Assembly (NCBI GenBank): GCA_018971605.1
Contig: JAGXAL010000002.1
Coordinates: 1 to 59,449 of the forward strand
Origin: Natronospirales bacterium
Lineage (GTDB): Bacteria; Pseudomonadota; Gammaproteobacteria; Natronospirales; REEB76
Length of the DNA: 59,449 nucleotides
Direction: 5' to 3'
Shown in pieces: positions 2,786 through 40,285 of this stretch. Positions within the stretch are counted from its first letter, which is position 1, and every line of letters starts with the position of its first letter. The notes below the pieces were generated by a model. It ran no database searches. It was not told where the DNA came from and saw only the letters and a program-made list of their open reading frames with translations. Both the position numbers and the translations under genes were made by a program.

Positions 2786-2799
2786 TTGACCTGGATCAC
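2786..2799 (-). promoter_or_regulatory. Crp/Fnr-family box (TTGACCTGGATCAC), likely class II promoter for the dksA-like gene
   Basis: 13/14 match to the window-wide 14-mer. The centre lies 64.5 nt upstream of ATG 2728. A TATA-rich segment (GATATAGG on the minus strand, 2755-2762) sits at roughly the -10 position. Confidence 0.6.
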
Positions 2800-2829
2800 G
2801 CGCACAAAGGGAATCCGCGGTTCCGGCAA

Positions 2830-2843
2830 TTGATCCAGGTCAG
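2830..2843 (+). promoter_or_regulatory. Crp/Fnr-family box (TTGATCCAGGTCAG), class II promoter for the flavoprotein-nrdJ operon
   Basis: The box centre is exactly 32 bp upstream of the centre of TAGTTT (2866-2871). It is 66.5 nt upstream of ATG 2903. Confidence 0.65.
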
Positions 2844-2902
2844 TGTGCCGGGCGGCTGCATGCACTAGTTTTGAACATACTTACAAATCGCAGGACAGCG
2901 CC

Positions 2903-4876
2903 ATGGACACGCCACTGCTTTCCACCCCCGGCCGCATCGGCGGCCTGACGCTCAAGAACCGTCTGCTGATGGCGCCGATGGTGCGCAACTATGCCGACGA
3001 ACGCGGCCGCATGAGCGAGCGCTATCTGGCGCATCTCGCGCGCATTGCCCGCGGCGGGGTCGCCGCCATGATTCTGGAGGCCAGCTTCGTGACTCCCGAA
3101 GGCCGCGGCTTCAGCCACGAGCTCGGTCTGCACGAAGACGGCGTGGTGCCCGGGTTGCGTCGCGCCGTGGAGCTGATCCACGCCGAAGGCGCGCTTGCCG
3201 GCATCCAGCTTTATCACGCGGGCCGTCAGACCAGCCAGCAGGTCACCGGCACGCAGCCGCTGGCGCCGTCGGCCATTCCCTGTCCGCTGCTGAATCAATT
3301 GCCGCGCGCGCTCACGCTCGCGGAAATCCAGACGCTGACAGGTGCTTTCGCAAGCGCGGCGGCCCGCGCGCAAGCCGCGGGTTTCGACTTCGTGGAAATC
3401 CACGCGGCCCACGGTTATCTCATCACCCAGTTCCTGTCGCCCTTCAGCAACCGGCGCAGCGACGCTTACGGCGGCAGCACGGAGAACCGCCGGCGCTTTC
3501 TCGACGAGATCATCACCGCAGTGCGCGCGCGCGTCGGTCCGCAGTTCACCGTGACGCTGCGCTTGTCGGCCGACGAGATGGTGCCGGGGGGGCTGGAGAT
3601 CGCCGACAGCTGCGAGCTGGCTGCGTGGCTCGAGCGGCGCGGCATCGCCGCGATTCACGTGTCGGTCGGCAATTACGCCTCCTACACGCGCGGGCGCATG
3701 ATTCCGCCAATGTCAGTGGAGGATGCGCCGCTACTGGCTTACGCCGAAGGCATCAAGCGACAGGTCAGGATTCCGGTGATCGCGGTGGGCAAGCTGCGCA
3801 CGCCGGCGCTGGCCGAAGCGGCTTTGCGCCAGGGACAGGCGGATTTCATTGCGCTCGGACGCGAGCTGCTCGCCGATCCGGACTGGCCGCGCAAGGCGCT
3901 GGCTGGCGAAGGCGAGCGCATTCACGAGTGCATCGCCTGCAACCAGGGCTGCATCAGCCGCCTGTTCGAACAGCGCGACGTGTGGTGCACCGTCAATCCC
4001 GAGTGCGGGCGCGAGCGCAAATTTGCCGCGTTCGCGGCCGACAACGGCCAGCGCAAAGTGCTGGTGGCCGGCGGCGGCCCGGCCGGCATGGCGGCCGCAT
4101 GCTACGCGGCGCGCGCCGGTTTCCAAGTGATCCTGTGCGAGGCGCGCAATGAATTGGGCGGCCAATTGCTGGCCGCGAGCGCCGCACCCCATCGTCCCGG
4201 CTGGCGCGAGCTGCGCGCGGGTATGCACACTGCCCTGCGGCAGTTGGGCGTGGAGTTGCGCTGCAACACGTGCGTGGACCGCACGTACGTGGAGCGCGAA
4301 CGGCCTTATGCGCTGGTGGTGGCCACCGGCGCAGTGCCGGTGCGTCCGCAGATTCCCGGCATCAACAAAGTCAACGTAATCAGCGCCCGCGACCTCCTGG
4401 AAGGCGGGGCCGAGGCCGAGGGCCGGGTGTTGGTGGTGGGCGGCGGCTGCTCCGGGGCGCAGACCGCCGAATATCTGGCGCAAGCGGGGCACGCGGTGAC
4501 CATGGTCGAGGCGGAAGGCGACATCGCCGCGGATGCGCCGCTCGACGAGCGTACGCTGCTCGTGGGACGGCTGCGCGCGCTCGGCGTGAACATCATGGCG
4601 CACACCCGCCTGCTCAGCATCGGCGAGTATCCGCTGCTGCAGTCAGCCGCCGGCGAACACTTTCAATTGCCGGTGGATACGGTGGTGCTGTGCCTGGGCG
4701 CGCGTTCGGTCAACAGTCTCGAGCAGGAAGCGCTCGGCCTGGTGTCGCGGGTATATACCGTGGGCGACGCCGTGCGCCCGCGCAAGGTCACGGAAGCGAT
4801 TGCGGAAGGCGCACTCGCCGGACTCGGTGCGGCGCGCGACAGCACGGGCCAAACTGCCCGCGCGCTGACGGCATGA
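2903..4876 (+). CDS. FadH-like NADH:flavin oxidoreductase (OYE-type FMN domain + 4Fe-4S Cys cluster + FAD/NAD(P) domain; 2,4-dienoyl-CoA reductase family)
   Basis: N-terminal OYE-like segments (LKNRLLMAPM, HAAHGYLITQFLSP). Cys cluster HECIACNQGC....WCTVNPECG. A GxGxxG motif (VLVAGGGPAGMAAA) and a second one (VLVVGGGCSGAQTA). Start taken at MDTPLL (ATG 2903). Confidence 0.85.
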   Translation: MDTPLLSTPGRIGGLTLKNRLLMAPMVRNYADERGRMSERYLAHLARIARGGVAAMILEASFVTPEGRGFSHELGLHEDGVVPGLRRAVELIHAEGALAGIQLYHAGRQTSQQVTGTQPLAPSAIPCPLLNQLPRALTLAEIQTLTGAFASAAARAQAAGFDFVEIHAAHGYLITQFLSPFSNRRSDAYGGSTENRRRFLDEIITAVRARVGPQFTVTLRLSADEMVPGGLEIADSCELAAWLERRGIAAIHVSVGNYASYTRGRMIPPMSVEDAPLLAYAEGIKRQVRIPVIAVGKLRTPALAEAALRQGQADFIALGRELLADPDWPRKALAGEGERIHECIACNQGCISRLFEQRDVWCTVNPECGRERKFAAFAADNGQRKVLVAGGGPAGMAAACYAARAGFQVILCEARNELGGQLLAASAAPHRPGWRELRAGMHTALRQLGVELRCNTCVDRTYVERERPYALVVATGAVPVRPQIPGINKVNVISARDLLEGGAEAEGRVLVVGGGCSGAQTAEYLAQAGHAVTMVEAEGDIAADAPLDERTLLVGRLRALGVNIMAHTRLLSIGEYPLLQSAAGEHFQLPVDTVVLCLGARSVNSLEQEALGLVSRVYTVGDAVRPRKVTEAIAEGALAGLGAARDSTGQTARALTA

Positions 4877-6663
4877 ACGACGCGCGGCCTGCGCCGTTCA
4901 GCAACGCGGTGTCGGCGCGCATCTGGGAGCAGCGCTACCGCTACCGCGTGGGCGAGCGCGCAATCGATGCCGATGTCGATGGCACCTGGCGCAGGGTGGC
5001 GCAGGCGCTGGCCGCGGTCGAGCGCGGGGATCAAAGCGGCTGGAGCGCACGCTTTCACGCCTTGCTCAAGGACTTTGCCTTTCTGCCGGGCGGCCGCATT
5101 TTGGCGGGCGCCGGCACCGCGCATCGCGTCACGCTGTTCAACTGTTTCAGCATGGGTGTGGTGCCGGATTCACTCGACGGCATCCTCACGCGTTTGCGCG
5201 AGGGCGCACTCACGCTGCAGCAGGGCGGCGGCATCGGCTGCGATTTCTCCGCCATCCGCCCCGCCGGGCTCACGGCGCGCGCCAGTGGCAATACCGCCAC
5301 CGGACCGGTGTCGTTCCTGCGCGTGTGGGATGCGGTCGCCGATACCATCCAGTCGCTGGGCGCGCGCCGCAGCGCCATGATGGCCACGCTGCGCTGCGAC
5401 CACCCCGATATCCTCGAGTTCATCAATGCCAAGCGCGCCGGCGGCCTGCGCAATTTCAACCTGTCGGTGCAGATCACCCGCGAATTCATGCAGGCGCTGG
5501 ACCAGGGCGGCGACTGGGAGCTGGTGTTCCCGGCCGACGTCTGGCCCGAGGGCCTCGGCGAGGCGCAGACGCTGCTGCGCCGCTGGCCCGGCCGCGACGC
5601 GCCGCTGCGTTGTCGCGTGTTGCGGCGTCTGCCAGCGCGGGAGTTGTGGCAGGCGCTGGCGAGCGCGGCGGCGGCCTGCGGCGATCCCGGGGTGTTGTTC
5701 GTGGATCGCATCAACGAGGAAAACAATCTGTGGTATTGCGAATACCTGAGTACCACCAATCCCTGCGGCGAAGTGCCGTTGCCGGAGTATGGCGCCTGTA
5801 ATCTCGGCTCCTTCAACCTTACGCAGTTCGTGCGCGCGCCGTTCACTGCTGCGGCGGTCTTCGATTTCGCGCGGCTCGAGGCGCAGGTGCCGACGGCCGT
5901 GCGGCTGCTCGACGACGCCATCGAGGTTTCCCGGTTTCCGCTGCCGCAGCAGGCCGACAGCGTGCGCCGCAGCCGCCGCCTGGGCCTGGGCGTCACCGGC
6001 TTGGCCGACGCGCTCATCATGCTCGGCCTGCACTATGCCTCGGCGGCCGCGCGCGAATTTGCGCAGCGGGTTTTGCGGTTGCTGCGCGATGCGGCCTACA
6101 GCGCTTCGGTGACGCTCGCCGGTGAGCGCGGCGCGTTTCCGGCCTTCGATCCCGACGAGTACCTGCGCAGCGCTTTCGCGCAGCGCCTGCCCGAAGAGCT
6201 GCGTTCGCGCATTTTCATCCACGGCATCCGCAACAGCCACCTGCTGGCGATCGCACCCACCGGCACCATCAGCCTGCTGGCCAACAACATTTCCAGCGGT
6301 ATCGAGCCGGTATTCGATTTTCACGTGCGCCGGCGCCTGCGGGCTGCGGACGGCGGTGCCGAAGACTATCCGCTGACTGATTACGCTTGGCGGCTATGGC
6401 GCGGGCAGCGCGGTGAAGCCGCGCCCGGCCCGGCCTTGGTCACCGCGGCGCAAATACCGGCGGACGCGCAGCTCGCCATGTTGGCGGCCATGCAGCCTTA
6501 TGTGGATAACGCCATCTCCAAGACCATCAATCTCACGCAAGCCGGGCCCGCGGAAGTGAGCGGCATTTTCCTGGACGCCTGGCGCCTCGGCCTCAAGGGC
6601 TGCACTGCCTACGTCCACCAGGCCGGCCGCGACATCATAAGCTCGGCCCCGCCGCAGGGCTAA
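4873..6663 (+). CDS. nrdJ: adenosylcobalamin-dependent (class II) ribonucleotide reductase, short form without C-terminal Cys tail
   Basis: Contains the active-site motif STTNPCGEVPLPEYGACNLGSFNL, plus LPGGRIL, GGGIGCDFS and the C-terminal KGCTAY. ATG 4873 overlaps the upstream TGA (ATGA), so the two genes are translationally coupled. Confidence 0.85.
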   Translation: MNDARPAPFSNAVSARIWEQRYRYRVGERAIDADVDGTWRRVAQALAAVERGDQSGWSARFHALLKDFAFLPGGRILAGAGTAHRVTLFNCFSMGVVPDSLDGILTRLREGALTLQQGGGIGCDFSAIRPAGLTARASGNTATGPVSFLRVWDAVADTIQSLGARRSAMMATLRCDHPDILEFINAKRAGGLRNFNLSVQITREFMQALDQGGDWELVFPADVWPEGLGEAQTLLRRWPGRDAPLRCRVLRRLPARELWQALASAAAACGDPGVLFVDRINEENNLWYCEYLSTTNPCGEVPLPEYGACNLGSFNLTQFVRAPFTAAAVFDFARLEAQVPTAVRLLDDAIEVSRFPLPQQADSVRRSRRLGLGVTGLADALIMLGLHYASAAAREFAQRVLRLLRDAAYSASVTLAGERGAFPAFDPDEYLRSAFAQRLPEELRSRIFIHGIRNSHLLAIAPTGTISLLANNISSGIEPVFDFHVRRRLRAADGGAEDYPLTDYAWRLWRGQRGEAAPGPALVTAAQIPADAQLAMLAAMQPYVDNAISKTINLTQAGPAEVSGIFLDAWRLGLKGCTAYVHQAGRDIISSAPPQG

Positions 6664-6674: not shown

Positions 6675-6688
6675 TTGATCCAGGTCAA
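6675..6688 (+). promoter_or_regulatory. Crp/Fnr-family box (TTGATCCAGGTCAA, the window consensus form), promoter of the hsp20 operon
   Basis: Matches the window consensus 14-mer exactly. CAAAAT lies at 6710-6715, 31 bp from the box centre. The box is 106 nt upstream of ATG 6788. Confidence 0.65.
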
Positions 6689-6787
6689 TGCAGCGGATCG
6701 GGCGCAGGACAAAATGTTCATGTTGATCAATGTGCAACAAGTGTGCGGCGGCAAGGGCTGCCGCGTCGTGTTACGAGGAGGAATGCC

Positions 6788-7237
6788 ATGTATCTCACAC
6801 GTTATGAACCGCGGAATTTCTTCCGCGACATGTCCGAGGAATTCAACCGCATGTTCGGCGGCCGTATGGGAAATTACCTGCCAGCCGATGGTGGGGATCT
6901 CGCGGCGACCGACTGGCTGCCGGCCGTGGACATCAAGGAAGAGGACAGCCGCTTCCTGGTGCGCGCCGACCTGCCGGGCGTGGATCCCAAGGACGTGGAA
7001 ATCACCCTGCAAAACGGCACGCTGGCCATCAAGGGCAAGCGCGAGTCCGAAGCCAAACGCGACGAGCAGGACTATTATCGGGTGGAGCGCGTTTACGGCG
7101 AGTTCTTCCGCCGCTTCACGCTGCCGGATTCCGCCGACCCCGACAAGGTGACCGCCAAGTACGACAAGGGCGTGCTGGAGATCGAGATCGGCAAGTCCGA
7201 GGCGCGCAAGCCCCGGCGCATCACGGTGAAGTCCTGA
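6788..7237 (+). CDS. Hsp20/alpha-crystallin family small heat-shock protein
   Basis: Alpha-crystallin domain (WLPAVDIKEEDSRFLVRADLPGVDPKDVEITLQNGTLAIKG ... GEFFRRFTLP ... AKYDKGVLEIEI). RBS AGGAGGA at 6775-6781 precedes ATG 6788. Confidence 0.9.
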   Translation: MYLTRYEPRNFFRDMSEEFNRMFGGRMGNYLPADGGDLAATDWLPAVDIKEEDSRFLVRADLPGVDPKDVEITLQNGTLAIKGKRESEAKRDEQDYYRVERVYGEFFRRFTLPDSADPDKVTAKYDKGVLEIEIGKSEARKPRRITVKS

Positions 7238-7284
7238 AAGCTCCGCGATCGGGGCCATAGCCATTCAGGGTGCAGGAGATGGAT

Positions 7285-7494
7285 ATGTTCCGCAGATTCG
7301 TGCGTTTGCGTTGCCCCGAGTGCGACGAAGGGATTGCGCTGCCGCGGCGCAAGCTCGCCGTCGGCCAGAGCGTGCGCTGCCTGCACTGCGGCGCCGGCTT
7401 GTACGTCAATCGCGTGCACGCCGAGCCCGACAGCACGCGCCTCTGGCAACTGGAGAGCCGCGATCCCCTGGAAGAGGAGCGGCTCGGCACATGA
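7285..7494 (+). CDS. small zinc-ribbon protein (CPEC...CLHC), function unknown
   Basis: 69 aa with two CxxC pairs. RBS AGGAG at 7274-7278 precedes ATG 7285. Its stop overlaps the ATG of the next gene (ATGA). Confidence 0.5.
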   Translation: MFRRFVRLRCPECDEGIALPRRKLAVGQSVRCLHCGAGLYVNRVHAEPDSTRLWQLESRDPLEEERLGT

Positions 7495-7940
7495 GCGGCG
7501 GCGCGCTGGTACTGGTAGCGGACAGTGCCCGCGCGCGCTTGTTCAGTTGGGAGCGTGGCATCCCGCAGTTGCAGGAAATCGACGACTGGGTGAATGCCGA
7601 GGCGCGCTTGCCGCAACGCGCCTTGGCCAGCGACCGTCAGGGTCGCGGCTTCAATCGTCAGCGCGGCAGCCGCACTGCGCTGGGCAGCACCAGCTTACAG
7701 CGCAACAGCGCGCAAAAATTCGCGCTGCGCGTGGGCCGGCGCCTGGCCGCCGAGTCGAACGCACGCCGTGCCGCGCGCTTGTTCGTTTTCGCCGAAGCGG
7801 AATTTCTCGGCCTGTTGCGCAATGCGCTGCGCAGCCGCCGCCCCGGATTGCCGGTGCGCGGCATTGCCAAAAACCTGACGCGGGCCACGCCGCAACGCAT
7901 CCGCGAGTATCTGCCGAAATATATGGGGTTCAGCGCCTGA
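7491..7940 (+). CDS. host attachment protein family (Host_attach) protein
   Basis: 149 aa. The N-terminal LVLVADSARARLF, the central DRQGRGFN....S block, and the later FA..V...L.......RL.VFAEAEFLGLLRNAL pattern match my recollection of this family. Confidence 0.7.
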   Translation: MSGGALVLVADSARARLFSWERGIPQLQEIDDWVNAEARLPQRALASDRQGRGFNRQRGSRTALGSTSLQRNSAQKFALRVGRRLAAESNARRAARLFVFAEAEFLGLLRNALRSRRPGLPVRGIAKNLTRATPQRIREYLPKYMGFSA

Positions 7941-9768: not shown

Positions 9769-9782
9769 ATGACCTGGATCAA
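9769..9782 (-). promoter_or_regulatory. Crp/Fnr-family box (minus-strand reading TTGATCCAGGTCAT), promoter of usp-small ORF-hdeD
   Basis: The centre lies 79.5 nt upstream of ATG 9696. The minus-strand hexamer CATATT (9741-9746) is exactly 32 bp from the box centre. Confidence 0.65.
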
Positions 9783-9813: not shown

Positions 9814-10488
9814 TCAACCCGACCCGGCAAGGCGCGCCAGCGCGGCGCGGTCGCGGATCACGATGCGTTCGCGCCCGAGCTCGATCCAGTGGCGGCCTTC
9901 AAAGCTGCGCAGCAGCCGTGAGACGATCTCGCGCACCGAGCCGAGCTCGTCGGCCAGCGCCTGGTGGGTGACCTGCAGCGCATCCTCGCCGCGCGCCAGC
10001 AGCCTGGCCGCGAGCCGTTGATCGAGGCGCTGGAAGACCACGGCCTCGACCACCTGCATGAGCGTGCCCAGGCGCTCGCCGAATTCGCCGAATACGTAGT
10101 GGCGGAATTCGGGGCTTTCATCGAGCAGCGCCAGAAACGTGGCCGGCGGCAGCAACACCATGACCAGCGGCTGTTCGGCAAGCGCCGTGGCGGTGTAGCT
10201 GATCTTGCCGAGCAGACAGGAGGCGCTCAGCAGGCAACTCTCTCCGCGTTTGACGCGGTAGAGCTCGACCTCGCGTCCGTTGGCGCCGCGCTGGAACACG
10301 CGCAGGCTGCCGTCAAGGATCAACGGCAGGCCGCGGCAGGGAGCATGTTCATCAAACACGACTTTGCCGGCCGGATGGGCGTAGTACTGGGCTTCGGCCG
10401 CGACGCGCCGCTGCAGCGCGGGCGGCAGGCGCGCAAACGTCGGGAAGCGCTCTTCCAGCGTGTGCAGGGCGGAATCGGACAACGGCAT
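9814..10488 (-). CDS. Crp/Fnr family transcriptional regulator (Dnr/NnrR-like, no FNR Cys cluster)
   Basis: Has a cNMP-binding-like beta-roll and a C-terminal [27 protein letters not shown], carrying the E--SR motif. There is no N-terminal CxxCxxxxxC. I chose ATG 10488 over the TTG at 10506. Confidence 0.85.
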
Positions 10489-10525
10489 ACGCAGCTCCCG
10501 TAGCAATTATAAGGCGCGAGGCTTG

Positions 10526-10541
10526 CGTGACTTAAGTCACG
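10526..10541. promoter_or_regulatory. perfect 16-bp palindrome CGTGACTTAAGTCACG (TGA-N6-TCA core) between the regulator gene and the DUF302 gene
   Basis: Shares the half-site spacing of the FNR-type boxes but has G/C flanks. TAGGCT (10563-10568) is exactly 32 bp from its centre on the plus strand. The palindrome lies 38-53 nt upstream of the regulator ATG. Confidence 0.5.
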
Positions 10542-10609
10542 GAAGCGCGCCCCCGGGGCGCCTAGGCTTGCTGCGAATGATTCATGAGCAGCAACGCGGA
10601 GCGCAGGCA

Positions 10610-10999: not shown

Positions 11000-11008
11000 A
11001 ACGCAGGT

Positions 11009-12374: not shown

Positions 12375-12399
12375 TTCCGCAAACACGAGGAGTAAATCC

Positions 12400-32558: not shown

Positions 32559-32890
32559 TTGCAAACATCCTCAACACGCTGGTGGGACTGGCGCTGGCCT
32601 GCCTGACGGTGCTCAAGCCCTTGTGGATCGAGCGTCAGTATCTGCCGCTGCTGGTGTTCGCGGCGGTGATTTTCCTGCTGGCCTGGTGGGCGCGGCGCAG
32701 CGATCCAGCGCGCTGGTTCAGCTCTGTGAACATGGTGATGGCGGTGTTGCTTGCAATCCTCGCGCTCCTGCCGCTGGCGACGCTGCCGAACCTGTCGTTC
32801 TGGGGGGCATTCTGGATCGGTGTCATCGTGCCGGTGGTGGCGCTGTGGGCCGCGTTGTATCGCCCCGAGTCGCGGGTGGCGGCGGAGTAA
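32555..32890 (+). CDS. small 4-TM membrane protein (unknown family)
   Basis: 111 aa with an ATGA overlap with the preceding gene. Strongly conserved against the paralog at 36175..36510 (MI.NILNT.VGL ... RPLWIERQ ... DPARWFS ... VPVVALWAALY.PES). Confidence 0.6.
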   Translation: MIANILNTLVGLALACLTVLKPLWIERQYLPLLVFAAVIFLLAWWARRSDPARWFSSVNMVMAVLLAILALLPLATLPNLSFWGAFWIGVIVPVVALWAALYRPESRVAAE

Positions 32891-32943
32891 CCGGTTTTGG
32901 AATTGATGCGGATCGCGGTTAACAGCATGAGGAGTATCGGCTC

Positions 32944-33261
32944 ATGAAAAAGATTTATGCGGTGACAGGGCTCGCAGTGATGGCATCGCTGGCTTTGCCG
33001 GCGGCCTGGTCTGCAGATCCGGGAGCCGGCCAGAAGCTTTTTCAAACGACATGTATCGCCTGCCATGGACAGAACGGCGTGGGCATCGCGCCCATGTATC
33101 CGAATCTCGCCGGCCAGAAAATGGAGTACATCGTGGCCCAGCTCAAAGCCTTCCGCGACGGCCAGCGCGTGAATCCGATCATGAGCCCCATGGCCAAGGG
33201 CTTGTCGGATACCGATATCGCGAATTTGGCCGAGTATCTGAGCACATTGAAGCCGCAGTGA
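32944..33261 (+). CDS. monoheme class I cytochrome c (c-551/c-552-like), periplasmic
   Basis: Has a signal peptide, heme motif CIACHG, and a distal Met context ([13 protein letters not shown]). RBS GAGGAG at 32929-32934. Confidence 0.8.
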   Translation: MKKIYAVTGLAVMASLALPAAWSADPGAGQKLFQTTCIACHGQNGVGIAPMYPNLAGQKMEYIVAQLKAFRDGQRVNPIMSPMAKGLSDTDIANLAEYLSTLKPQ

Positions 33262-33870
33262 CCTGCGCAGCCGGCCTGTGGCGGGACGGCTCTCCAATCA
33301 GAACTGCAAAGTCACTGCAAATCGGATTTGTGTGATGGCTCCGGTGCTGATTGCACCGGGGGGTGCACCGTGAGAGTCCGGACGGGCGCAAGCGCTTGAG
33401 TCCGCATGCCGATTCCAAAAGTCGTCAACCGCTCCGCAGCCGTGATGTTGAGGTTGCTGCACGCCGTGACGTCCGCCCAAGTGTCGGCCTGCGCTTCAGT
33501 CAGGCGCGGGCATGCGTTCACGCGGTGGTGAGCTGCGTGTAACGGCTTGATGCCGCAGTCATTGCCCAACTTGGATACCCGCCGTGCGTGAGCTGCTGAC
33601 CAGGTAAACGGGGTCACATTGCCTGGATTGCCAATGAAAATAAGCGCGTGCCGAATGCTGCGTGTACCGCGCATGTTTGTCTTGGGGGCAAACTGGTGCT
33701 TTAATAATCCTCGGCAGCGGCTGGCAAAGGGAAATCCGGTCGACCATCGATGATCGCGACACCAGCGGCCAAGATGCACTTTGTTACGCGGATTGTTGCC
33801 TGATCGCGCGTTGGGTTCATGGCCAACATTTTTTTGACGCACGCAATCTCATCTGACGGGGAGCCACAGC

Positions 33871-34467
33871 GTGGATATCCAGGAACCGGGATTTTGGCGG
33901 GCCGGGGCGATCAGCACCACGGCGGTAATGATCGTGGTGCTGATATTCCTTTCCATCAACAGCTCGCAGGCGATCGCGGTCGGTGGCAGTCACGTGCCGG
34001 ATTACAGCGTGATCAACCGGCAGATCGGTTACCGTTATGATTGGACGCGTCGCGAGGACGTGCCGGTGATCGGCGGGCCGCAGCCGCTGTTCGGCAAGGT
34101 GTACAACGAAGGCCAGGCCACGGCGCTCATGAACCGGGCCAAGCTCGTCATTCAGAGCCGCAACTGCATCAATTGCCATACCTTTTTCGGTAACGGCGCC
34201 TATTACGGCCCGGACCTTACCAAGTCCTGGCTGGACCCGGCTTGGCATCAGATTTTCATGCCGATGACCGGCGCCAAGACCCAGGAAGAGGCGATGGTGA
34301 TGTTCCTGATGGACCCGCCCAAGTACCCCACTTGGGATCGCCGGATGCCCAATCTGCATCTTAGCGAGCAGGATGCGCAAGCCGTGGTCGCCTATCTCAA
34401 GTGGATGTCGGCCGTGGATACCAATGGCTTTCCCGCGAACTTTGGCATGCAGGGGGAGAAACCGTGA
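33871..34467 (+). CDS. norC: NorC-like cytochrome c subunit, paralog 2
   Basis: GTG start, TM anchor, heme motif CINCH, and the same insertion and C-terminal YLKWM..VDTNGFPANFGM as copy 1. Confidence 0.8.
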   Translation: MDIQEPGFWRAGAISTTAVMIVVLIFLSINSSQAIAVGGSHVPDYSVINRQIGYRYDWTRREDVPVIGGPQPLFGKVYNEGQATALMNRAKLVIQSRNCINCHTFFGNGAYYGPDLTKSWLDPAWHQIFMPMTGAKTQEEAMVMFLMDPPKYPTWDRRMPNLHLSEQDAQAVVAYLKWMSAVDTNGFPANFGMQGEKP

Positions 34468-35885
34468 GCACCGCAGAGATCGGCTTGTACCGTTCGCAGA
34501 AACTCGCACTGCGCTATTTCACCGCCGCCGTCATTTTGTTCGGTGTCATGATTCTGTTCGGGTTCCTGTCCTCGCTCTATTACCTGCATCCTTCGATGCT
34601 GTTCAAGGTCTTCGACTTCAACACCTCGAAGATGCTGCACATTGACACCCTGGTGATCTGGCTGCTGATGGCGCTCATGGGTTCGATTTACTGGTTCCTG
34701 CCCAAGGAAATCGGCGGCGAGATTGCCGGCATCCGCTTCGCGGAGATCATGTTCTGGGCGTTCTGCGTGATCGTGGCGATTGTCGCCGTGGTCTTTATCT
34801 TCGTGCAGTACGGCCACGCGGATGAATTCAGTCTGTGGTTCATCAATCAGGGACGCAAGTACCTGGAGGCGCCGCGCTGGGCTTCGCTCGGTATCGTGGC
34901 GGTGCTGCTGACCTTCTCCTATAACGTGATCGGAAGTGCCATCAAACGGCGCAAGATGACCGGAATACTCTGGGTGCTGTGCCTGGACCTGATCCCGCTG
35001 GTGCTGGTTTACACCGACGCCTTCGCCGCGCAGACCAACATGTCGGTGGATCTCTACTGGTGGTGGTGGATCGTGCACATGTGGGTGGAGAGCACCTGGG
35101 AGGTGCTGATCGGCTGCATCATGGCGATGATGCTGATGGAAATTGCCGGCACTTCGCGGCGCATCGTCGAAACCTGGCTATACATCGAGGTCATGCTGGT
35201 GCTGGGCGCCGGCATTCTCGGCCTGGGCCATCATTACTTCTGGATCGGTACCCCGGAGTACTGGCTGAGCATCGGTGGTTTCTTCTCGGCACTCGAACCT
35301 TTGCCGCTCCTGGGCATGGTGGTGCATGCAATTTATGACGCCGGCAGCCACCACCTGAAAAACACCAATACCCCCGCCTTCTGGTGGATTACTGCCGAGG
35401 CCTTCGGTAATTTCATCGGGGCCGGAGTGTGGGGCTTCATGATGACGCTGCCGCAGATCAATCTGTTCTCGCACGGCACACAGTGGACGGTGTCGCACGG
35501 GCACTTCGCCTTCTACGGCGCGTATGTCTGTGGCGTGATCGCGGTGTTTTATCTCGCACGGCAGAAGTACACCGGCATTGAGCACCTGCACGGCAAGGGC
35601 TGGTGGTGGGGGTTTGGACTCCTGAATTTCGGTATGCTCGGCATGGTGATGGCGCTGCTGCTCGCGGGTATGGCGCAAGCCTTCTACGGGCGCGCCATCG
35701 GCGGCTCGACGCTCATGGCCTTCACCGACGCCTCGCAAAATGCCTGGTTCGTGGCCGGCATGTGGGCGCGTACCGGCTTCGGCGTGGTGTTCGCGCTCGG
35801 CTACGTGGCGCTGGTCTGGGATCTGCTGGCGATCCGCAAGCGCCTGCCGCAAGCCGCTGCCGTGTCGTCGCCGGAGCCGGCATGA
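34464..35885 (+). CDS. norB: NorB (cNOR large subunit), paralog 2
   Basis: GTG 34464 overlaps the norC2 TGA (GTGA). RBS GGGGGAG at 34452-34458. All His ligands are conserved. The active-site segment reads VHMWVESTWE, where copy 1 has G instead of S. Confidence 0.9.
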   Translation: MSTAEIGLYRSQKLALRYFTAAVILFGVMILFGFLSSLYYLHPSMLFKVFDFNTSKMLHIDTLVIWLLMALMGSIYWFLPKEIGGEIAGIRFAEIMFWAFCVIVAIVAVVFIFVQYGHADEFSLWFINQGRKYLEAPRWASLGIVAVLLTFSYNVIGSAIKRRKMTGILWVLCLDLIPLVLVYTDAFAAQTNMSVDLYWWWWIVHMWVESTWEVLIGCIMAMMLMEIAGTSRRIVETWLYIEVMLVLGAGILGLGHHYFWIGTPEYWLSIGGFFSALEPLPLLGMVVHAIYDAGSHHLKNTNTPAFWWITAEAFGNFIGAGVWGFMMTLPQINLFSHGTQWTVSHGHFAFYGAYVCGVIAVFYLARQKYTGIEHLHGKGWWWGFGLLNFGMLGMVMALLLAGMAQAFYGRAIGGSTLMAFTDASQNAWFVAGMWARTGFGVVFALGYVALVWDLLAIRKRLPQAAAVSSPEPA

Positions 35886-36178
35886 GTCCCGAGGCGGTAC
35901 TCTATAGCGCGGGCCTCTGTGGCCTGCTGACCTTGGCGGCGTTCGGCTACGGGGCGTTCTACGTGGGCAGCAAGATGCTCGCCGTTAAGCTGATTTATGG
36001 CGCGCATGGTTGCTACTTCATTGTGGCGGCGCTCGCGATTCTGATCTTTCTGTCCACCCCGTTGGGGATCGGTTGGAAGATCCTAATCGTTGCGAGCGCC
36101 GTGGTGTACGCCGCGGTGCCGCCAGTGACGTGGCGTTTTCTCGTGAAGCTGCATGCGCCAGAGGAGCAGCACTCATGA
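35882..36178 (+). CDS. small 3-TM membrane protein, paralog of 32259..32558
   Basis: ATGA overlap with norB2. The C-terminus is VPPVTWRFLVKLHAPEEQH. Confidence 0.6.
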   Translation: MSPEAVLYSAGLCGLLTLAAFGYGAFYVGSKMLAVKLIYGAHGCYFIVAALAILIFLSTPLGIGWKILIVASAVVYAAVPPVTWRFLVKLHAPEEQHS

Positions 36179-36510
36179 TTCCGAATATTCTCAATACCTG
36201 TGTCGGGCTGTTTCTGTCCTACCTGGTCATCATCCGGCCGCTATGGATCGAAAGACAGTTTTTCCCGCTGTTGGTATTCGCCGCCGTGATGTTCCTGCTG
36301 GCGCTCTGGGCACGGCGTACGGATCCGGCGCGCTGGTTCAGCACCATGAATATGGTGCTCGCGGTATTGCTTGGGGTCTTGGCGCTTTTGCCGCTCCCTC
36401 TGTTGCCGAATCTCACTTTCTGGGGCGGGTTCTGGGTCGGCATTCTGGTGCCGGTGGTGGCGCTGTGGGCGGCTCTCTACAAGCCCGAGTCACCGGCGGT
36501 GGAACCATGA
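36175..36510 (+). CDS. small 4-TM membrane protein, paralog of 32555..32890
   Basis: ATGA overlap with the preceding gene. High similarity to the copy 1 protein along its whole length. Confidence 0.6.
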   Translation: MIPNILNTCVGLFLSYLVIIRPLWIERQFFPLLVFAAVMFLLALWARRTDPARWFSTMNMVLAVLLGVLALLPLPLLPNLTFWGGFWVGILVPVVALWAALYKPESPAVEP

Positions 36511-36574
36511 CGCGCTGCGGCACTGAGCTGCAGCATCATTGCGAGATTCAATCAAGCTTGAGGAGGAAGCGATC

Positions 36575-36931
36575 GTGAAAAAAATTCTTGTGTTGCTGGC
36601 GGCAGTGTTGTCTCTGGCCTCGGTGCTCCCGGCGGCGCGCGCCGCTGATCCCGCCGCCGGCGCGAAGCTCTACAACGCGACCTGCGTCGCCTGCCATGGG
36701 CAGGATGGCATATCGGTGGCCCCGATTTACCCGAACTTGGCGGGCCAGAAGGAACAGTATCTGGTCACCCAGCTCAAGGCGTTCCGCGACGGTACCCGCG
36801 TCAACCCCATCATGAACCCAATGGCCAAGGGCTTGTCGGATACCGACATCGCCAATCTGGCTTTGTATCTGAGCAGCCTGGGCGCAGCCGTTCCGCCGCC
36901 TGCCGCATCGTCAGGTCAAAGCCAGAGATAA
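36575..36931 (+). CDS. monoheme class I cytochrome c, paralog 2 (with Ala/Pro-rich C-terminal extension)
   Basis: GTG 36575 follows RBS AGGAGG at 36561-36566. Has a signal peptide, CVACHG and [13 protein letters not shown]. Confidence 0.8.
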
Positions 36932-37736: not shown

Positions 37737-37799
37737 GCAGGCCGTGGGCTTTGTTGAGCGCTCGGTGGCGCAAGCTAGCGAAGACCGTCGTCAAAGTAA

Positions 37800-37813
37800 T
37801 TGATGGGCATCAA
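37800..37813 (-). promoter_or_regulatory. perfect FNR-consensus box TTGATGGGCATCAA, positioned for the SDR gene
   Basis: The minus-strand hexamer TAGCTT (37772-37777) is exactly 32 bp from the box centre. The box lies 70.5 nt upstream of ATG 37736. No -10-like hexamer sits at the equivalent plus-strand position toward metE. Confidence 0.6.
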
Positions 37814-37989
37814 GACGGGACGGGCGCTTCCGCCTCTGAACAGCAAGCCTGCGGGCTCCGCACTTGATGGAAATCATGGACACGGGCAGGCGGCATGCGC
37901 AGCATGCGGCCTTGGTCGCACTGGTAGGCTGGAAGACATTTTTTGCGAAATGCCTGGCGAGCAGAACCGCTGCAAGAGGAACAAGCATC

Positions 37990-40275
37990 ATGGCACTGGT
38001 CACTTACGCGGGATTTCCGCGTATCGGTCTGAAACGCGAGCTTAAGCGCGCGCTGGAAGCCTATTGGCGTGGCGAGATCGCGGCGGACGCGCTGCAGGAC
38101 ACGGCGCGTGCGCTGCGTGCACGCCATTGGAAACTGGGCCGCGATGCCGGCGCGGACATCGTGCCGTGCAACGATTTCAGCCTCTACGACCATGTGCTGG
38201 ATACCGCGGTGCTGTTCGATGCCATTCCCGAGCGTTATCGGCCGGTGTTTGCCAACAACCGGCTGGACGGCTATTTCGCCATGGCCCGCGGGCACAAGCG
38301 CGGCGGCTACGACTTGCACGCGTTGGAAATGACCAAGTGGTTCGACACCAACTACCACTACATCGTGCCCGAGCTGCACGCGGGACAGCGTTTCGCCCTG
38401 CGGGGTGACAAGCCCGTTGCGGAATTTCTCGAGGCCAGGGCGCTGGGCATCTACGCCCGCCCGGTCGTGTTGGGGCCGGTATCGTTTCTGCTGCTGTCCA
38501 AGACCTCCGATCGCAGCCAACCGCTCACGTTGCTTGGCGCTCTGCTGCCGGCTTACACGGCGCTGTTGCAGCGCCTCGCGGCCGCCGGCGCCGATTGGGT
38601 GCAACTGGACGAACCCTGTCTGGTGCTCGACCTCGATGCGGCCGCCCAGGCGGCGCTGCGTCAGGCTTACGCTGCCTTGGCGGCATCCAGCGGTCTCAAG
38701 ATTTTGCTGGCCAGTTATTTCGGCGCGCTCGGCGGCAATCTCGATTTGGCGGTGCAGTTGCCGGTGAACGGCCTGCATGTTGACCTGGTACGCGCACCCG
38801 AACAACTGGATGCGGTACTGGAGGCCTTGTCGCCTGCGCGGGTACTCAGCGCCGGCGTCATCGACGGACGCAACATCTGGCGCAGCCGTCCCGATCAGGT
38901 GTTGCCGCGGCTACAGCGCGCCCAAGCCCGGCTGGGTGCCGAACGTCTGTGGCTGGCGCCGTCCTGCTCCCTGCTGCACGTGCCTATCGACGTGCAGGCC
39001 GAGACCGCGCTGGAACCGGCGCGCCGCGCCGCAATGGCGTTCGCGCGCCAGAAAATCGAGGAGCTGCGCCTTTATGCGGACGCCCTGGCTGGTGGTGCGC
39101 AGGCCGCCGCGTCACTGGCGGCGCAGCAACAGCGCCTGGGTGCACAGGCACAGCTGCCGGGAGTGGTTGATCCCGAAGTGCGCGCGCGGCTGCGCAAACT
39201 CGGCCCGCAGGCGGCACGGCGCCGCTCCGATTATGCCCAGCGCCGCGCGGCGCAGGCCAAAGCGCTGCCGCTGCCGCCGCTGCCGACCACCACCATCGGC
39301 TCGTTCCCGCAAACCGACGAGTTGCGCCAGGCGCGCGCCGCGCAGCGTGCCGGCAAGCTTTCCGCTTCCGACTACGGCCAGCGCATGCGCGCTGAGATCG
39401 AGCGCGTGGTGCGCTTCCAGGAAAACATCGGGCTGGACGTGCTGGTGCACGGCGAACCCGAACGCAACGACATGGTGGAGTATTTCGGCGAACAACTCGA
39501 CGGTTATCTGTTCACCCAGCACGGCTGGGTGCAAAGTTACGGCTCGCGCTGCGTCAAGCCGCCGGTGATCTGGGGCGACATCGCGCGGCGCGCACCCATG
39601 ACCGTCGCCTGGGCGCGCTATGCGCAATCGCTCACCCAGAAACCCGTGAAGGGCATGCTCACCGGCCCGGTCACCATGCTGCAGTGGTCGTTCGTGCGCG
39701 ATGATTTGCCGCGCGCCACGGTCTGCCGGCAGCTCGCGCTGGCGCTGCGCGACGAAGTGCGGGATCTGGAAGCCGCGGGTATCCGCGTGATCCAGATCGA
39801 CGAACCGGCGTTTCGCGAAGGCCTGCCGCTGCGGCGCGCGGACTGGGCCGCGTACCTGGCCTGGGCAGTGGAGTGCTTCCGCATCGCCACGGGCGGCGCC
39901 GGCGACAGCACCCAGATCCACTCGCACATGTGTTACTCGGAATTCAACGACATCATCGAAGCCGTGGCGGCCATGGATGCCGACGTGATTTCCATCGAGA
40001 GCAGCCGTTCGCGCATGCAACTGCTCGAGGCCTTCGTGCGCTTCCGTTATCCGAACGGCATCGGACCCGGGGTTTATGACATTCACTCGCCGCGGGTGCC
40101 GGAAGGCGGCGAGATGCTCGAGCTCCTGCACAAGGCGCTGGGCGTGCTGCAGCCGCAGCAGCTGTGGGTCAATCCCGATTGCGGCCTGAAAACCCGCAAC
40201 TGGTCCGAGGTGGAGCCGGCGCTGCGGCACATGGTGGCCAGCGCGCAAAAACTGCGCAGCGAGCTGCGGCTTTGA
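37990..40275 (+). CDS. metE: cobalamin-independent methionine synthase
   Basis: 761 aa. The N-terminus GFPRIGLKRELKRALEAYW and the C-terminal Zn-site contexts (HMCYSEF, NPDCGLKTR) match MetE. Start taken at MALVTY (ATG 37990). Confidence 0.9.
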   Translation: MALVTYAGFPRIGLKRELKRALEAYWRGEIAADALQDTARALRARHWKLGRDAGADIVPCNDFSLYDHVLDTAVLFDAIPERYRPVFANNRLDGYFAMARGHKRGGYDLHALEMTKWFDTNYHYIVPELHAGQRFALRGDKPVAEFLEARALGIYARPVVLGPVSFLLLSKTSDRSQPLTLLGALLPAYTALLQRLAAAGADWVQLDEPCLVLDLDAAAQAALRQAYAALAASSGLKILLASYFGALGGNLDLAVQLPVNGLHVDLVRAPEQLDAVLEALSPARVLSAGVIDGRNIWRSRPDQVLPRLQRAQARLGAERLWLAPSCSLLHVPIDVQAETALEPARRAAMAFARQKIEELRLYADALAGGAQAAASLAAQQQRLGAQAQLPGVVDPEVRARLRKLGPQAARRRSDYAQRRAAQAKALPLPPLPTTTIGSFPQTDELRQARAAQRAGKLSASDYGQRMRAEIERVVRFQENIGLDVLVHGEPERNDMVEYFGEQLDGYLFTQHGWVQSYGSRCVKPPVIWGDIARRAPMTVAWARYAQSLTQKPVKGMLTGPVTMLQWSFVRDDLPRATVCRQLALALRDEVRDLEAAGIRVIQIDEPAFREGLPLRRADWAAYLAWAVECFRIATGGAGDSTQIHSHMCYSEFNDIIEAVAAMDADVISIESSRSRMQLLEAFVRFRYPNGIGPGVYDIHSPRVPEGGEMLELLHKALGVLQPQQLWVNPDCGLKTRNWSEVEPALRHMVASAQKLRSELRL

Positions 40276-40285
40276 TATTCATCAA
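40272..40285 (+). promoter_or_regulatory. perfect FNR-consensus box TTGATATTCATCAA, overlapping the metE stop and upstream of the PrpD-family gene
   Basis: CAAGAT (40308-40313) is 32 bp from the box centre, but it is a weaker -10 than the others. The box lies 138.5 nt upstream of ATG 40417. Confidence 0.45.

Follow-up and report, generated by a model that had tools for sequence, protein, structure and literature searches.

The 22-bp consensus site of Escherichia coli CRP is AAATGTGATCTAGATCACATTT. In Pseudomonas aeruginosa, the paralogous Crp/Fnr proteins Anr and Dnr share TTGAT-N4-(A/G)TCAA boxes at -41.5; their cascade controls USP genes and norCB, the latter from a Dnr-dependent promoter. 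Discussions of Anr are found in PMC3721108 and PMC9104464. In the lxa (low-oxygen-activated) locus of Burkholderia cenocepacia, which comprises 50 genes, an FNR/Anr-like inverted repeat, TGA-N6-TCA, occurs at 17 intergenic points (Sass et al. 2013, PMC3721108). In Bradyrhizobium diazoefficiens, the FixK2 box is TTGA/C-N6-T/GCAA; TTGACCTGGATCAA and TTGATCCCGGTCAA are among those published, TTGAYC being generally preferred, and the targets include Hsp20 (hspC2), USP, one host-attachment and one CBS protein, an RND adaptor and a cytochrome c (PMC9104804). PgRsp of Porphyromonas gingivalis, modelled by its authors on the structure 3DV8, is reported to sense redox state, bind heme and regulate its own gene, and is assigned to a 'novel family' (PMC6955866).

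The locus described here matches the lxa locus and the FixK2 regulon in gene content (USP, Hsp20, NrdJ, CBS, host-attachment, RND and norCB). The window, by which we mean the whole 59,449-nucleotide stretch of DNA that was analysed, contains ten near-identical boxes with the core TGATCCAGGTCA between positions 2786 and 30199. If the palindrome at 10527 is included, a box is found at 13 of 13 transcription units between 2.3 and 33.3 kb, as the units follow from gene calls and box positions, and the boxes would join these units (about 31 genes) in one co-induced stress regulon. Essentially each unit of the contiguous block is marked, in keeping with the earlier description of a regulon island with about one box per operon. 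The island encodes an oxygen-independent ribonucleotide reductase (NrdJ), USP, Hsp20, a DksA-like protein, CBS, hemerythrins and cytochrome b561, together with a P-type ATPase, an acyl-CoA synthetase/acetyltransferase, PolX, a sulfide:quinone reductase (SQR) with an RND pump, and NO reductase in two norCB cassettes. No nir or nos genes are present, a difference from the Anr/Dnr setting. The island is a 31-kb block of genes for stress from low oxygen, nitric oxide and sulfide. If the lxa and FixK2 regulons are a guide, respiratory inhibition is the probable trigger, through low O2 and possibly also NO or sulfide.

The likeness to lxa is close. Both are contiguous blocks of tens of genes with intergenic FNR-like boxes, and both have universal stress proteins, Hsp20/alpha-crystallin, a class II ribonucleotide reductase, cytochrome b561, a cation P-type ATPase, an outer-membrane/efflux system and an in-locus CRP-family regulator; in both the binding protein is only putative (PMC3721108). 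The island adds SQR and the two norCB cassettes and lacks the PHB, acetate kinase/Pta and alcohol dehydrogenase genes. As in regulons of the lxa/FixK2 type, USP, Hsp20, class II RNR and related stress genes are clustered, with an FNR-like box before each. The island is thus a further case of a known kind of regulon; its one unusual part is the particular regulator that it encodes.

The features are as follows. Scores in bits are from a matrix built from the ten CCAGG-type (class-B) sites and are circular for those sites, its training set.

2786-2799, minus: class-B box GTGATCCAGGTCAA, 23.3 bits, before the DksA/TraR-like gene 2330-2728 (minus); -10-like GATATA/TATAGG 23/25 nt downstream (about 2762-2755); box centre to ATG, 64 bp
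2830-2843, plus: class-B box TTGATCCAGGTCAG, 24.2 bits, OYE-flavoenzyme/NrdJ operon 2903-6663; TAGTTT at 2866-2871, spacer 22 nt
6675-6688, plus: class-B box TTGATCCAGGTCAA, the perfect consensus, 26.6 bits, hsp20, Zn-ribbon and host-attachment genes 6788-7940; weak -10 CAAAAT at 6710-6715
9769-9782, minus: class-B box TTGATCCAGGTCAT, 25.0 bits, usp/hyp58/DUF308 operon 9696-7968 (minus); TATTGT at 9744-9739
9814-10488, minus: Crp/Fnr-family regulator gene, 224 aa, cNMP_binding and HTH_Crp_2 domains
10527-10540, no strand assigned: class-A palindrome GTGACTTAAGTCAC, predicted shared operator of the regulator gene and the DUF302 gene
11009-11022, plus: class-B box TTGACCTGGATCAT, 24.1 bits, SQR/YgaP-TM/OEP/MFP/RND operon 11097-18432; -10-like CAGAAT at 11046-11051
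21611-21624, minus: class-B variant TTGATCCAAATCAG, 20.3 bits, hyp125 and ADP-forming acyl-CoA synthetase/GNAT gene 21538-18437 (minus); TAATTT at 21588-21583, spacer 22 nt
21650-21663, plus: class-B box ATGACCTGGATCAA, 25.0 bits, flavodoxin-like gene 21741-22226; TATCTT at 21687-21692, spacer 23 nt
22248-22261, plus: class-B box CTGATCCAGGTCAA, 23.3 bits, CBS and AAA_33 genes 22328-24387; TAAGCT at 22284-22289
26809-26822, bidirectional: class-B box TTGATCCATGTCAA, 24.7 bits, P-type ATPase-hemerythrin gene 26701-24410 (minus) and cyt b561/hemerythrin/PolX 26997-30062 (plus); TAGTTT at 26845-26850 and TAAGGT at 26786-26781, 22 nt from the box on either side
30186-30199, plus: class-B box TTGACCTAGATCAA, 24.4 bits, first norCB cassette 30317-33261 (NorB identified by a structure match to 3o0r_B, E=6e-93); TAATAT at 30223-30228, 23 nt downstream, so that the box precedes norCB at class II spacing
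37800-37813, minus: canonical symmetric FNR-type box TTGATGGGCATCAA, not class B, below 10 bits, SDR/metE divergent region; TAGCTT at 37777-37772, 22 nt off on the SDR side
37864-37877, towards metE: near-canonical box TTGATGGAAATCAT
40272-40285, plus: canonical symmetric FNR-type box TTGATATTCATCAA, 12.8 bits, 138 bp upstream of a PrpD-like gene; CAAGAT only, with no TAnnnT at class II spacing

Every box sequence listed by the first-pass annotation is present in the window. TTGATCCATGTCAA starts at 26809, one off from the listed 26808, and the 'related palindrome at 10526' is CGTGACTTAAGTCACG at 10526-10541, the 14-mer itself occupying 10527-10540. TTGATCCAGGTCAA has 13 matches in the window with up to three mismatches, against 2.0 +/- 1.3 in shuffles; TTGATNNNNATCAA with at most one mismatch was observed nine times in the window, against 0.63. 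Chance is excluded as the origin of the boxes. The best other match in the window, an independent point, scores 15.4 bits with the matrix that gives the ten sites their circular 20.3-26.6 bits. The same box had been claimed for 12 promoters: this holds for ten, whereas 37800 and 40272 belong to a canonical symmetric class, TTGAT-N4-ATCAA, with unrelated centres and less than 13 bits on the class-B matrix. Intergenic DNA makes up only 8.4% of the window, and the ten class-B boxes, the palindrome and the boxes at 37800, 37864 and 40272 all lie inside it, as the annotation had said of the sites it listed; 3 nt of box 40272 are shared with the stop codon of metE. The CCAGG/CCTGG centre, said to be common to seven sites, is exact at 2786, 2830, 6675, 9769, 11009, 21650 and 22248.

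We read the placement of the boxes through a -10 proxy: if the box centre is at -41.5, the hexamer falls at -12 to -7. A strict TAnnnT lies 22-24 nt past the box in 10 of 14 box/direction combinations, compared with a random rate of 0.56%, and in those ten the hexamer centre is 32-34 bp from the box centre. At 6675 and 11009 the hexamer with this spacing is nAnnnT (CAAAAT, CAGAAT). This pattern supports the class II (-41.5) geometry first proposed for these putative Crp/Fnr boxes. In relatives, the fixed 22-nt spacing is found at 19 of about 38 regulator-proximal GTGA-type boxes (five differ in one or both outer bases). Each box would be bound by a dimeric transcription activator of the Crp/Fnr family, the box centre lying about 41.5 bp upstream of the predicted transcription start. 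Overlapping the -35 region, the activator would recruit RNA polymerase to promoters that have a -10 but no good -35. What the sequence shows is the boxes, with their geometry and conservation; the binding protein, its signal and activation as such are inferred. The FixK2 regulon is alike in its class II-type Crp/Fnr activation, in that case under microoxia (PMC9104804).

What distinguishes these boxes from generic ones is their centre. Conservation resides in the inner 12-mer, and positions 1 and 14 each hold only about 0.4 bit. Information content is 20.3 bits, as opposed to 15.8 bits for 24 published FixK2 boxes, and the extra bits lie in the 'spacer'; conservation of the centre does exceed that in a generic FNR regulon. 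That this spacer is normally free was a premise in need of qualification, since the conserved centre fits TGA-YYY-RRR-TCA, the pattern of the CRP consensus TGATCTAGATCA; the centres TCCAGG, CTTAAG and TCTAGG all agree with its YYY-RRR. The 'spacer' would belong to the recognition element itself, whose central step is CA/TG; it was not inherited by copying. FixK2 boxes keep positions 1-3 and 12-14 while the centre varies, and the island boxes are the inverse, with a strong centre and weak positions 1 and 14. Likewise, the 6-bp centre of the lxa motif is non-conserved, whereas that of the island boxes is nearly invariant. For an assumed genome of 4 Mb, log2(2 x 4 Mb / 10 sites) is 19.6 bits; the closeness of 20.3 bits to this value is what a dedicated regulator with some ten sites in each genome would give, and is unlike a global FNR.

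The class-A palindrome is kept as GTGACTTARGTCAC/GTGACCTAAGTCAC in 7 of 7 aligned sequences (the window and six relatives). On the DUF302 side TAGGCT (10563-10568) lies 22 nt away, and a TAnnnT, usually TAGRCT, is kept at this spacing in the window, L010, L090, L091 and L092/L093, not in L011 and L012. On the regulator side, TATAAT (10511-10506) lies a variable 15-18 nt from the palindrome, which would thus overlap the -35 of the regulator promoter. We propose that the same regulator binds here to activate the DUF302 promoter at the fixed 22-nt spacing and, by occluding the -35 of its own TATAAT promoter, to repress itself. The operator conserved across the family always has G...C as outer bases (GTGA...TCAC). 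A sister clade with 54-57% regulator identity has the operator GTGATCCAGGTCAC beside the regulator gene, with an identical 12-mer core at class II spacing; in Gallionellaceae-type relatives the centre is TGCTGC and is therefore not invariant across the regulator family.

The label 'classical FNR' is not borne out for the product of 9814-10488. It has no N-terminal cysteine cluster (C-x2-C-x5-C) and no cysteine in its first 50 residues; its only cysteines, C51, C85 and C91, lie in the beta-roll pocket and are invariant. Its recognition helix, S-V-R-E-I-V-S-R, is a hybrid of the R-E of CRP and the S-R of FNR. Lacking the cluster, and with Arg before the Glu (R-E-x-x-S-R) where the E-x-x-S-R helix of FNR has Val, it is not FNR proper. 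The closest solved structure is 3dv8, a protein of unknown function (E=3e-28 with the single sequence, 4e-45 with the family profile). Among the best 60 of 97 PDB matches (E up to 1) there is no structure of FNR or FixK2, and Dnr (3dkw) is a weak match to the family profile (E=1.5e-8), behind CRP-, NtcA- and Vfr-like proteins; the regulator scores nearer to CRP-like structures. It resembles CRP in the R-E pair, in the conserved operator GTGA-N6-TCAC and in class II geometry. It differs in showing no sign of cAMP binding, since on our reading of the alignment three cysteines replace residues of the phosphate-binding cassette, and in the FNR-type Ser before the last Arg of the helix. The lxa regulators are described as Anr-related, and by that description differ from the island regulator, which lacks the FNR/Anr cysteine cluster. 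FixK2 differs in being encoded away from most of its targets, in its E-x-x-S-R helix and in its control by FixLJ and Cys183 oxidation. Judged by its sequence, the regulator is a member of an uncharacterised Crp/Fnr subfamily marked by three invariant pocket cysteines and a hybrid CRP/FNR helix. It is linked repeatedly, though not universally, to sulfide:quinone reductase and/or an RND-efflux operon via a GTGA-type operator.

Could the boxes have arisen by recent duplication of a promoter cassette, or as a small mobile repeat of the REP/MITE kind? Seven sites agree fully over at least 12 bp, and a very recent spread of one promoter module had been suggested. However, identity between the flanks of the boxes is 29.5%, against 27.3% for random sequences, and its maximum is 45%, against a random maximum of 46%. 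Orthologous boxes are kept in genomes with 71-85% regulator identity whose flanks have diverged: in the intergenic regions orthologous to that of box 9769, in L090, L091, L010 and L011, no block but the box is conserved, and upstream of the SQR operon GACCTGGATCAT is invariant in six sequences (the window and five relatives) amid diverged flanks. Unrelated flanks and orthologous boxes in diverged relatives together rule out a recently copied module, and an interspersed repeat is refuted by the flank analysis. The boxes also occur in both orientations relative to the promoter, strictly in intergenic DNA and at a fixed distance from the -10, which leaves copying with next to no probability. That the boxes are instead repression operators, where a protein over the -35 region keeps promoters off until a signal arrives, strikes us as very improbable. 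A site at -48 to -35 does overlap the place of the -35 element, and the palindrome at 10527, with its variable distance to TATAAT, is probably repressive for the regulator's own promoter. Yet the fixed 22-24 nt to a weak -10 with no evident -35 is a signature of class II activation, repressor operators have no need of spacing exact in helical phase, and the homologous regulons (lxa, FixK2, Anr) are activated.

Which activator, then, reads the ten boxes? We lean towards the regulator encoded in the island itself. It is the only Crp/Fnr gene on the 59-kb contig, and the gene content of the island parallels the lxa locus and the FixK2 regulon. The sister-clade operator described above, with its identical core at class II spacing, points the same way. 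So does the enrichment of TGAYCNNGRTCA, which occurs 45 times, against 3.4 expected, in 1.3 Mb of DNA for which presence of the regulator was the sole ground of selection. In regulator-bearing loci the TCCAGG centre, common in the family's own operators, is found in 0 of 40 exact TTGA-N6-TCAA boxes, all but one of which come from loci with regulator identity of at most 64%; the centre therefore tracks the island regulator's family and not generic FNR boxes. A reciprocal metagenome scan, seeded with the box only, recovered a locus (L109) in which a 44%-identical homologue lies beside SQR and YgaP, with TTGATCTAGGTCAA and TTGATCCAGGTCAA between the homologue and those genes. Against the island regulator, besides observations taken up below, a homologue of it is found in only 1 of 120 box-seeded metagenome loci, and the TGCTGC centre of the Gallionellaceae-type operator shows that the centre varies within the family.

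A real possibility, though we hold it to be somewhat improbable, is that two regulators divide the sites. A canonical FNR/Anr/FixK-type protein (E-x-x-S-R) encoded elsewhere would read the ten T-type boxes together with 37800 and 40272, the island being an ordinary hypoxia regulon like those of lxa and FixK2; the island regulator would act only on the palindrome at 10527 and there, following a second signal, control its own gene and the DUF302/SQR/RND operon. The outer bases are the pattern expected from two different proteins: G...C in the family operator, mostly T rather than the G of CRP in the ten boxes (T at 13 of 20 half-site positions, G at one). Box-seeded metagenome matches, with flanks left unspecified, have T (59%) and A (57%) there, as in FNR-type sites; yet the island boxes are least conserved at positions 1 and 14, the ones read by FNR-type proteins. 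The exact 14-mer is not island-specific. Canonical E-x-x-S-R regulators use it elsewhere, in a published FixK2 target (bll0330) and, as a predicted site, in a target from E. coli FNR ChIP; metagenomes contain it widely. On the other hand, the island boxes are far more uniform than those of known global FNR/FixK2 regulons, and generic T-type boxes in related loci lack the TCCAGG centre. In the SQR operon, DUF302 is preceded by a class-A promoter and SQR by a class-B one, a tandem that would be more natural with two regulators integrating two signals, and the perfect canonical boxes at 37800 and 40272 suggest that the organism also has a canonical FNR-type protein; no second Crp/Fnr gene is present on the contig. 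Another metagenome locus (L147) pairs an FNR-type protein with a CxxCx5C cluster with DksA-like and CBS homologues and the same boxes, whereas in L109 it is a family member that accompanies T-type boxes of this core. By analogy with Anr and Dnr, cross-talk or a hierarchy of two family members could realistically explain the split between class A and class B. Also in favour of two regulators, what recurs beside the regulator in distant relatives is SQR, the RND pump and a G-type operator, not USP, Hsp20 or NrdJ.

Returning to the island regulator as the reader of the boxes, we offer tentatively a joint reading that we consider rather unlikely as a whole. The regulator would be the founding example of an uncharacterised clade of Crp/Fnr sensors, perhaps heme- or thiol-based, of respiratory poisons (sulfide, NO, low O2). 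Its ancestral job would be an SQR/RND-efflux operon with a GTGA-YYYRRR-TCAC operator, activating the operon (class II) and repressing its own gene. Here it would have taken over a whole lxa-like hypoxia regulon through about ten boxes of very high information content that have one 12-bp core in common; because it reads the centre and not the outer T/A, it would be insulated from a canonical FNR in the same cell. Full-text literature searches found no Crp/Fnr-type regulator of sqr. The 3DV8 protein of E. rectale keeps the three cysteines; the likeness to PgRsp runs via 3DV8 only, its host and targets (hmu and oxidative-stress genes) being unrelated to the island (PMC6955866).

The window is a complete 59,449-bp contig from an uncultured proteobacterial MAG with 65% GC, whose closest genome representatives are MAGs labelled Gammaproteobacteria or Betaproteobacteria. 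Genes were taken from the public annotation, supplemented by family searches and PDB comparisons. The island between 2.3 and 33.3 kb encodes the following products:

DksA/TraR-like zinc-finger protein
OYE-type flavoenzyme and NrdJ (4873-6663), a class II, B12-dependent ribonucleotide reductase
Hsp20, zinc-ribbon protein and host-attachment/baeRF12 protein
Tandem-domain universal stress protein (USP) with DUF308
9814-10488, minus strand: Crp/Fnr-family regulator, 224 aa, with cNMP-binding and HTH_Crp_2 domains
DUF302 protein
Type I sulfide:quinone reductase (SQR; 3sz0, E=2e-155) with a YgaP-like membrane peptide and an OEP-MFP-RND pump
18437-21127, minus strand: 896-aa ADP-forming acetyl/acyl-CoA synthetase (alpha and beta domains) with a C-terminal GNAT fusion
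125-aa unknown protein, preceding the acyl-CoA synthetase/GNAT gene
Flavodoxin-like protein
CBS protein and AAA_33 kinase-like protein
24410-26701, minus strand: heavy-metal-type P-type ATPase with a hemerythrin domain
Cytochrome b561, hemerythrin (27781-28251) and PolX
30317-33261: norC-norB cassette, first copy (3o0r_B, E=6e-93)

Every box sequence listed in the first-pass annotation is found in the window, and the listed sites stand except for one start, which is 26809 rather than 26808. The claim that the same box occurs at 12 sites does not hold: ten are alike, and those at 37800 and 40272 are another element, a perfect symmetric TTGAT-N4-ATCAA with unrelated centres that scores below 13 bits. 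The ten CCAGG-type sites score 20.3-26.6 bits with a weight matrix for which they are themselves the training set; the best other match in the window, a figure independent of that training, reaches at most 15.4 bits. Two pattern counts are far above the dinucleotide-shuffled expectation (13 versus 2.0, and 9 versus 0.63). The ten sites, the GTGA-type palindrome at 10527 between the regulator and DUF302 genes, and three boxes around metE all lie in intergenic DNA, as had been proposed; such DNA makes up 8.4% of the window. The pattern TGA-N6-TCA has 27 matches in the window, 14 of them intergenic. Boxes, the palindrome included, precede 13 of the 13 transcription units between 2.3 and 33.3 kb, where units and coverage are inferred from gene layout combined with box positions.

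How are these boxes placed relative to promoters? Once each box is oriented towards its downstream gene, 10 of the 14 box/direction combinations have a strict TAnnnT hexamer starting 22-24 nt past the box; random positions have one in 0.56% of cases. The boxes at 6675 and 11009 have nAnnnT (CAAAAT and CAGAAT) at class II spacing; at 2786, the hexamer is GATATA (23 nt) or TATAGG (25 nt). Given a 22-nt spacer and a box centre at -41.5, the hexamer falls at -12 to -7, the class II arrangement common to CRP and FNR. Box geometry and coverage of the block's units thus bear out the earlier proposal of a class II regulon island, as a prediction from sequence. At 26809 the box is flanked by a hexamer on each side, both at 22 nt, and can therefore serve two divergent promoters; it precedes both the ATPase-hemerythrin gene and the cytochrome b561/hemerythrin genes. 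The box at 21611 is predicted to drive the acyl-CoA synthetase/GNAT gene via the gene for the 125-aa unknown protein. The fusion itself resembles Pat-type protein acetyltransferases. A second FNR-like sequence, TTCATGTTGATCAA at 6717-6730, has one mismatch to TTGAT-N4-ATCAA. It follows the hsp20 box by 42 bp, stands 64 bp away from the ATG of hsp20 and lacks a -10 at the spacing expected for class II.

In the ten boxes, positions 2-8 and 11-13 carry the most information and positions 1 and 14 the least (~0.4 bit each). This profile is the reverse of that of 24 published boxes for FixK2, the microoxic Crp/Fnr activator of Bradyrhizobium diazoefficiens (list from PMC9104804). Every site joins a TGATCC half to a TGACCT half, both of which fit TGAYCY. 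The halves depart from symmetry solely at positions 5/10 and in the CA/TG step at the centre, a step that is never self-complementary. All three Y/R combinations at 5/10 occur in relatives (TGATCCAGATCA, TGACCCAGGTCA and TGATCCAGGTCA). The CRP consensus TGATCTAGATCA has the same TGA-YYY-RRR-TCA pattern; the 'spacer' in this family is therefore not generally free. A strict orientation of the asymmetric box can be rejected: the window has seven cases with the TGATCC half distal and three with it proximal, plus one bidirectional case. In the operators of the sister clade this half is always distal. Orientation relative to the promoter is preferred, not obligatory. CCWGG occurs in the window about as often as expected (235 versus ~250), which gives no support to Dcm-like methylation of CCWGG as the origin of the CCAGG centre.

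Recent spread of one promoter module had been suggested to explain this uniformity. The flanks speak against it: they are 29.5% identical, versus 27.3% for random window segments. A copied promoter module or mobile repeat is rejected, as the flanks look random beyond the 14-mer and the -10. We compared five to six related contigs (L010, L011, L012, L090, L091 and L092) whose regulators are 64-85% identical. Upstream of SQR the sole conserved block is GACCTGGATCAT with a -10-like AAT; downstream of the regulator it is CTT(G/A)ATCCAG(G/A)TCA. We therefore take these boxes, centre included, to be old and under selection.

The regulator encoded in the island is not a classical FNR, since it has no cysteines of the FNR type at its N-terminus. 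C51, C85 and C91 are the sole cysteines in the protein; all three are unchanged across 12 aligned relatives (at least 55% identity), and a 44% homologue and the E. rectale structure 3dv8 share them. The recognition helix, SVREIVSR, unites CRP's R-E pair with FNR's S-R pair; by the logic of the classic CRP/FNR specificity swaps, such a helix could read either G or T as the outer base. Of the solved structures, 3dv8 heads the best 60 of 97 matches listed by a wide margin. Next are CRP-like proteins from actinobacteria and Thermus, NtcA, Vfr and CRP; Dnr reaches E=1.5e-8, and neither FNR nor FixK2 appears in these 60. The one functional study found to use 3DV8 deals with PgRsp; its authors assign this heme-binding redox sensor to a 'novel family' (PMC6955866). 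A full-text literature search found no Crp/Fnr-type regulator of sqr/DUF302.

We collected 80 genome loci on one criterion alone, a gene encoding a relative of this regulator. They have no universal neighbour. Recurring neighbours are an RND pump (MFP in 32 of 80, RND in 26), the YgaP-like peptide (24), SQR (15) and DUF302 (7); USP, Hsp20 and NrdJ do not recur near the relatives in these loci. Synteny of the regulator with DUF302, type I SQR, the YgaP-like TM peptide and the RND pump extends down to 44% identity (window 9814-18432; related loci L010, L052 and L090-L093; metagenome locus L109). In about half of the 80 loci, a GTGA-N6-TCAC box lies at most 400 bp upstream of the regulator gene. 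TAnnnT stands exactly 22 nt off on the side of the divergent operon in 19 of about 38 such regulator-proximal boxes (a set that includes five with one or both outer bases differing), and at 23 nt in one more. The operator in the window's own clade is GTGACTTARGTCAC. On its DUF302 side, the window, L010, L090, L091 and L092/L093 share a TAnnnT (usually TAGRCT) at an unvarying distance of 22 nt, and none is detected there in L011 or L012; on the regulator side, TATAAT lies at a variable 15-18 nt. Because spacing is fixed on one side and variable on the other, the palindrome may mediate class II activation of the divergent operon together with autorepression by occlusion of the -35. The sister-clade operator (54-57% identity) is GTGATCCAGGTCAC, whose 12-bp core is identical to that of the window's ten boxes.

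Which protein reads the ten boxes? We lean slightly towards the island regulator as their putative reader. It is the sole Crp/Fnr gene on the contig, and the core of the boxes recurs in its family's own operators. The TCCAGG centre appears in 0 of 40 exact T-type boxes of related loci. L109, found by a scan seeded with the box only, has a family member adjoining SQR and two such boxes. Moreover, 20.3 bits is about what roughly ten sites per 4-Mb genome need (genome size assumed). Set against these points, the family operator is strictly G...C outside, whereas the half-site outer positions of the ten boxes are T in 13 of 20 and G in 1 of 20, and the SQR operon has one promoter of each class.

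It is also possible, if somewhat doubtful, that an unlinked paralogue of the FNR/Anr/FixK type reads the boxes. Two canonical FNR boxes are also present in the window, and canonical regulators elsewhere use the exact 14-mer: the FixK2 target bll0330 has the box TTGACCTGGATCAA, and an E. coli FNR ChIP target has the predicted site ATGACCTGGATCAA. A useful comparator on the type of regulator is L147, a locus on metagenome contig Ga0184637_10004431 (66% GC) resembling lxa, the low-oxygen-activated locus of Burkholderia cenocepacia. Here an FNR-type protein with a CxxCx5C cluster lies beside homologues of the DksA-like and CBS proteins (55% and 47% identical to those of the window) with the same boxes (TTGATCTGGATCAA, TTGATCCATGTCAA and TTGATCCAGGTCAA). 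If the island regulator does read the boxes, as we favour, it would be a new sensor type and a natural case of paralogous Crp/Fnr factors dividing sites by the 'spacer'.

Among the matches listed from the box-seeded metagenome scan, the unspecified bases are biased: position 1 is T in 59% and position 14 is A in 57%, and both together occur in 39%, versus ~6% by chance. Hence the promoter type formed by the full box and its -10 is widespread. On L194, a metagenome contig of 33% GC, seven TTGAY-N5-TCAA boxes lie roughly 105-220 bp apart at 3179-3943, mostly at ~105-115 bp; TRF reported no tandem repeat in this array.

As a regulon island, the finding is ordinary: an environmental counterpart of lxa and of the rhizobial FixK2 hypoxia regulon. 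It is established that a Crp/Fnr dimer bound at -41.5 can turn on a hypoxia and stress package. The lxa locus is a close parallel: it spans 50 genes, has the TGA-N6-TCA motif in intergenic DNA at 17 points, and encodes USPs, Hsp20, a class II RNR, cytochrome b561, a cation ATPase and, within the locus itself, a CRP-family regulator (PMC3721108). The FixK2 regulon is parallel in its targets, among them Hsp20, USP, a host-attachment protein, a CBS protein and an RND adaptor (PMC9104804). Unlike both, the island has a near-invariant box centre, a box at all of the block's inferred transcription units, and a non-FNR regulator with an SQR link and two operator flavours. These comparisons suggest that uncultured Betaproteobacteria widely carry the USP/Hsp20/NrdJ/CBS/DksA-like/host-attachment package under FNR-type class II promoters. 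The boxes have practical value as an unusually complete, high-information training set for MAG regulon annotation (13/13 inferred units, exact spacing). The more interesting thread is the regulator, which represents a Crp/Fnr subfamily without the FNR cluster, repeatedly linked to SQR and an RND pump and accompanied by two operator flavours, GTGA-type and TTGA-type, with one common 12-bp core. Whether this Cys-triad protein reads the boxes, and in response to what signal, is the more novel question.

Several other features of the window bear mention. A five-gene nor cassette (norC-like cytochrome c, NorB, two small unknown proteins and a 105-118 aa cytochrome c) occurs twice in tandem, at 30317-33261 and 33928-36931. 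The two NorB copies are 79% identical, and a box precedes the first cassette only. The intervening 666 bp (33262-33927) hold no called gene; an uncalled 176-aa minus-strand ORF there has no Pfam match. A Pseudomonas-type denitrification island under Dnr is rejected, for norCB stands alone in the window annotation, with no nir, nos or nar. Horizontal acquisition of the island is likewise rejected: there is no clear GC or skew boundary and no integrase was seen, with GC ~5% lower in the norCB region only. The single tRNA called by ARAGORN, a 96-nt tRNA-Gly(acc) at 25055-25150 on the minus strand, is probably spurious because it lies inside the ATPase coding region.

An Rfam scan of the whole window, including the region upstream of metE, found no riboswitch or other known RNA, and hence no cobalamin riboswitch in the metE leader. 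This 253-bp leader (37737-37989), which precedes the gene for the B12-independent methionine synthase MetE, carries two FNR-type boxes, and the B12-dependent NrdJ belongs to the box regulon. Together, the metE boxes and NrdJ may hint at oxygen-linked switching of B12 use.
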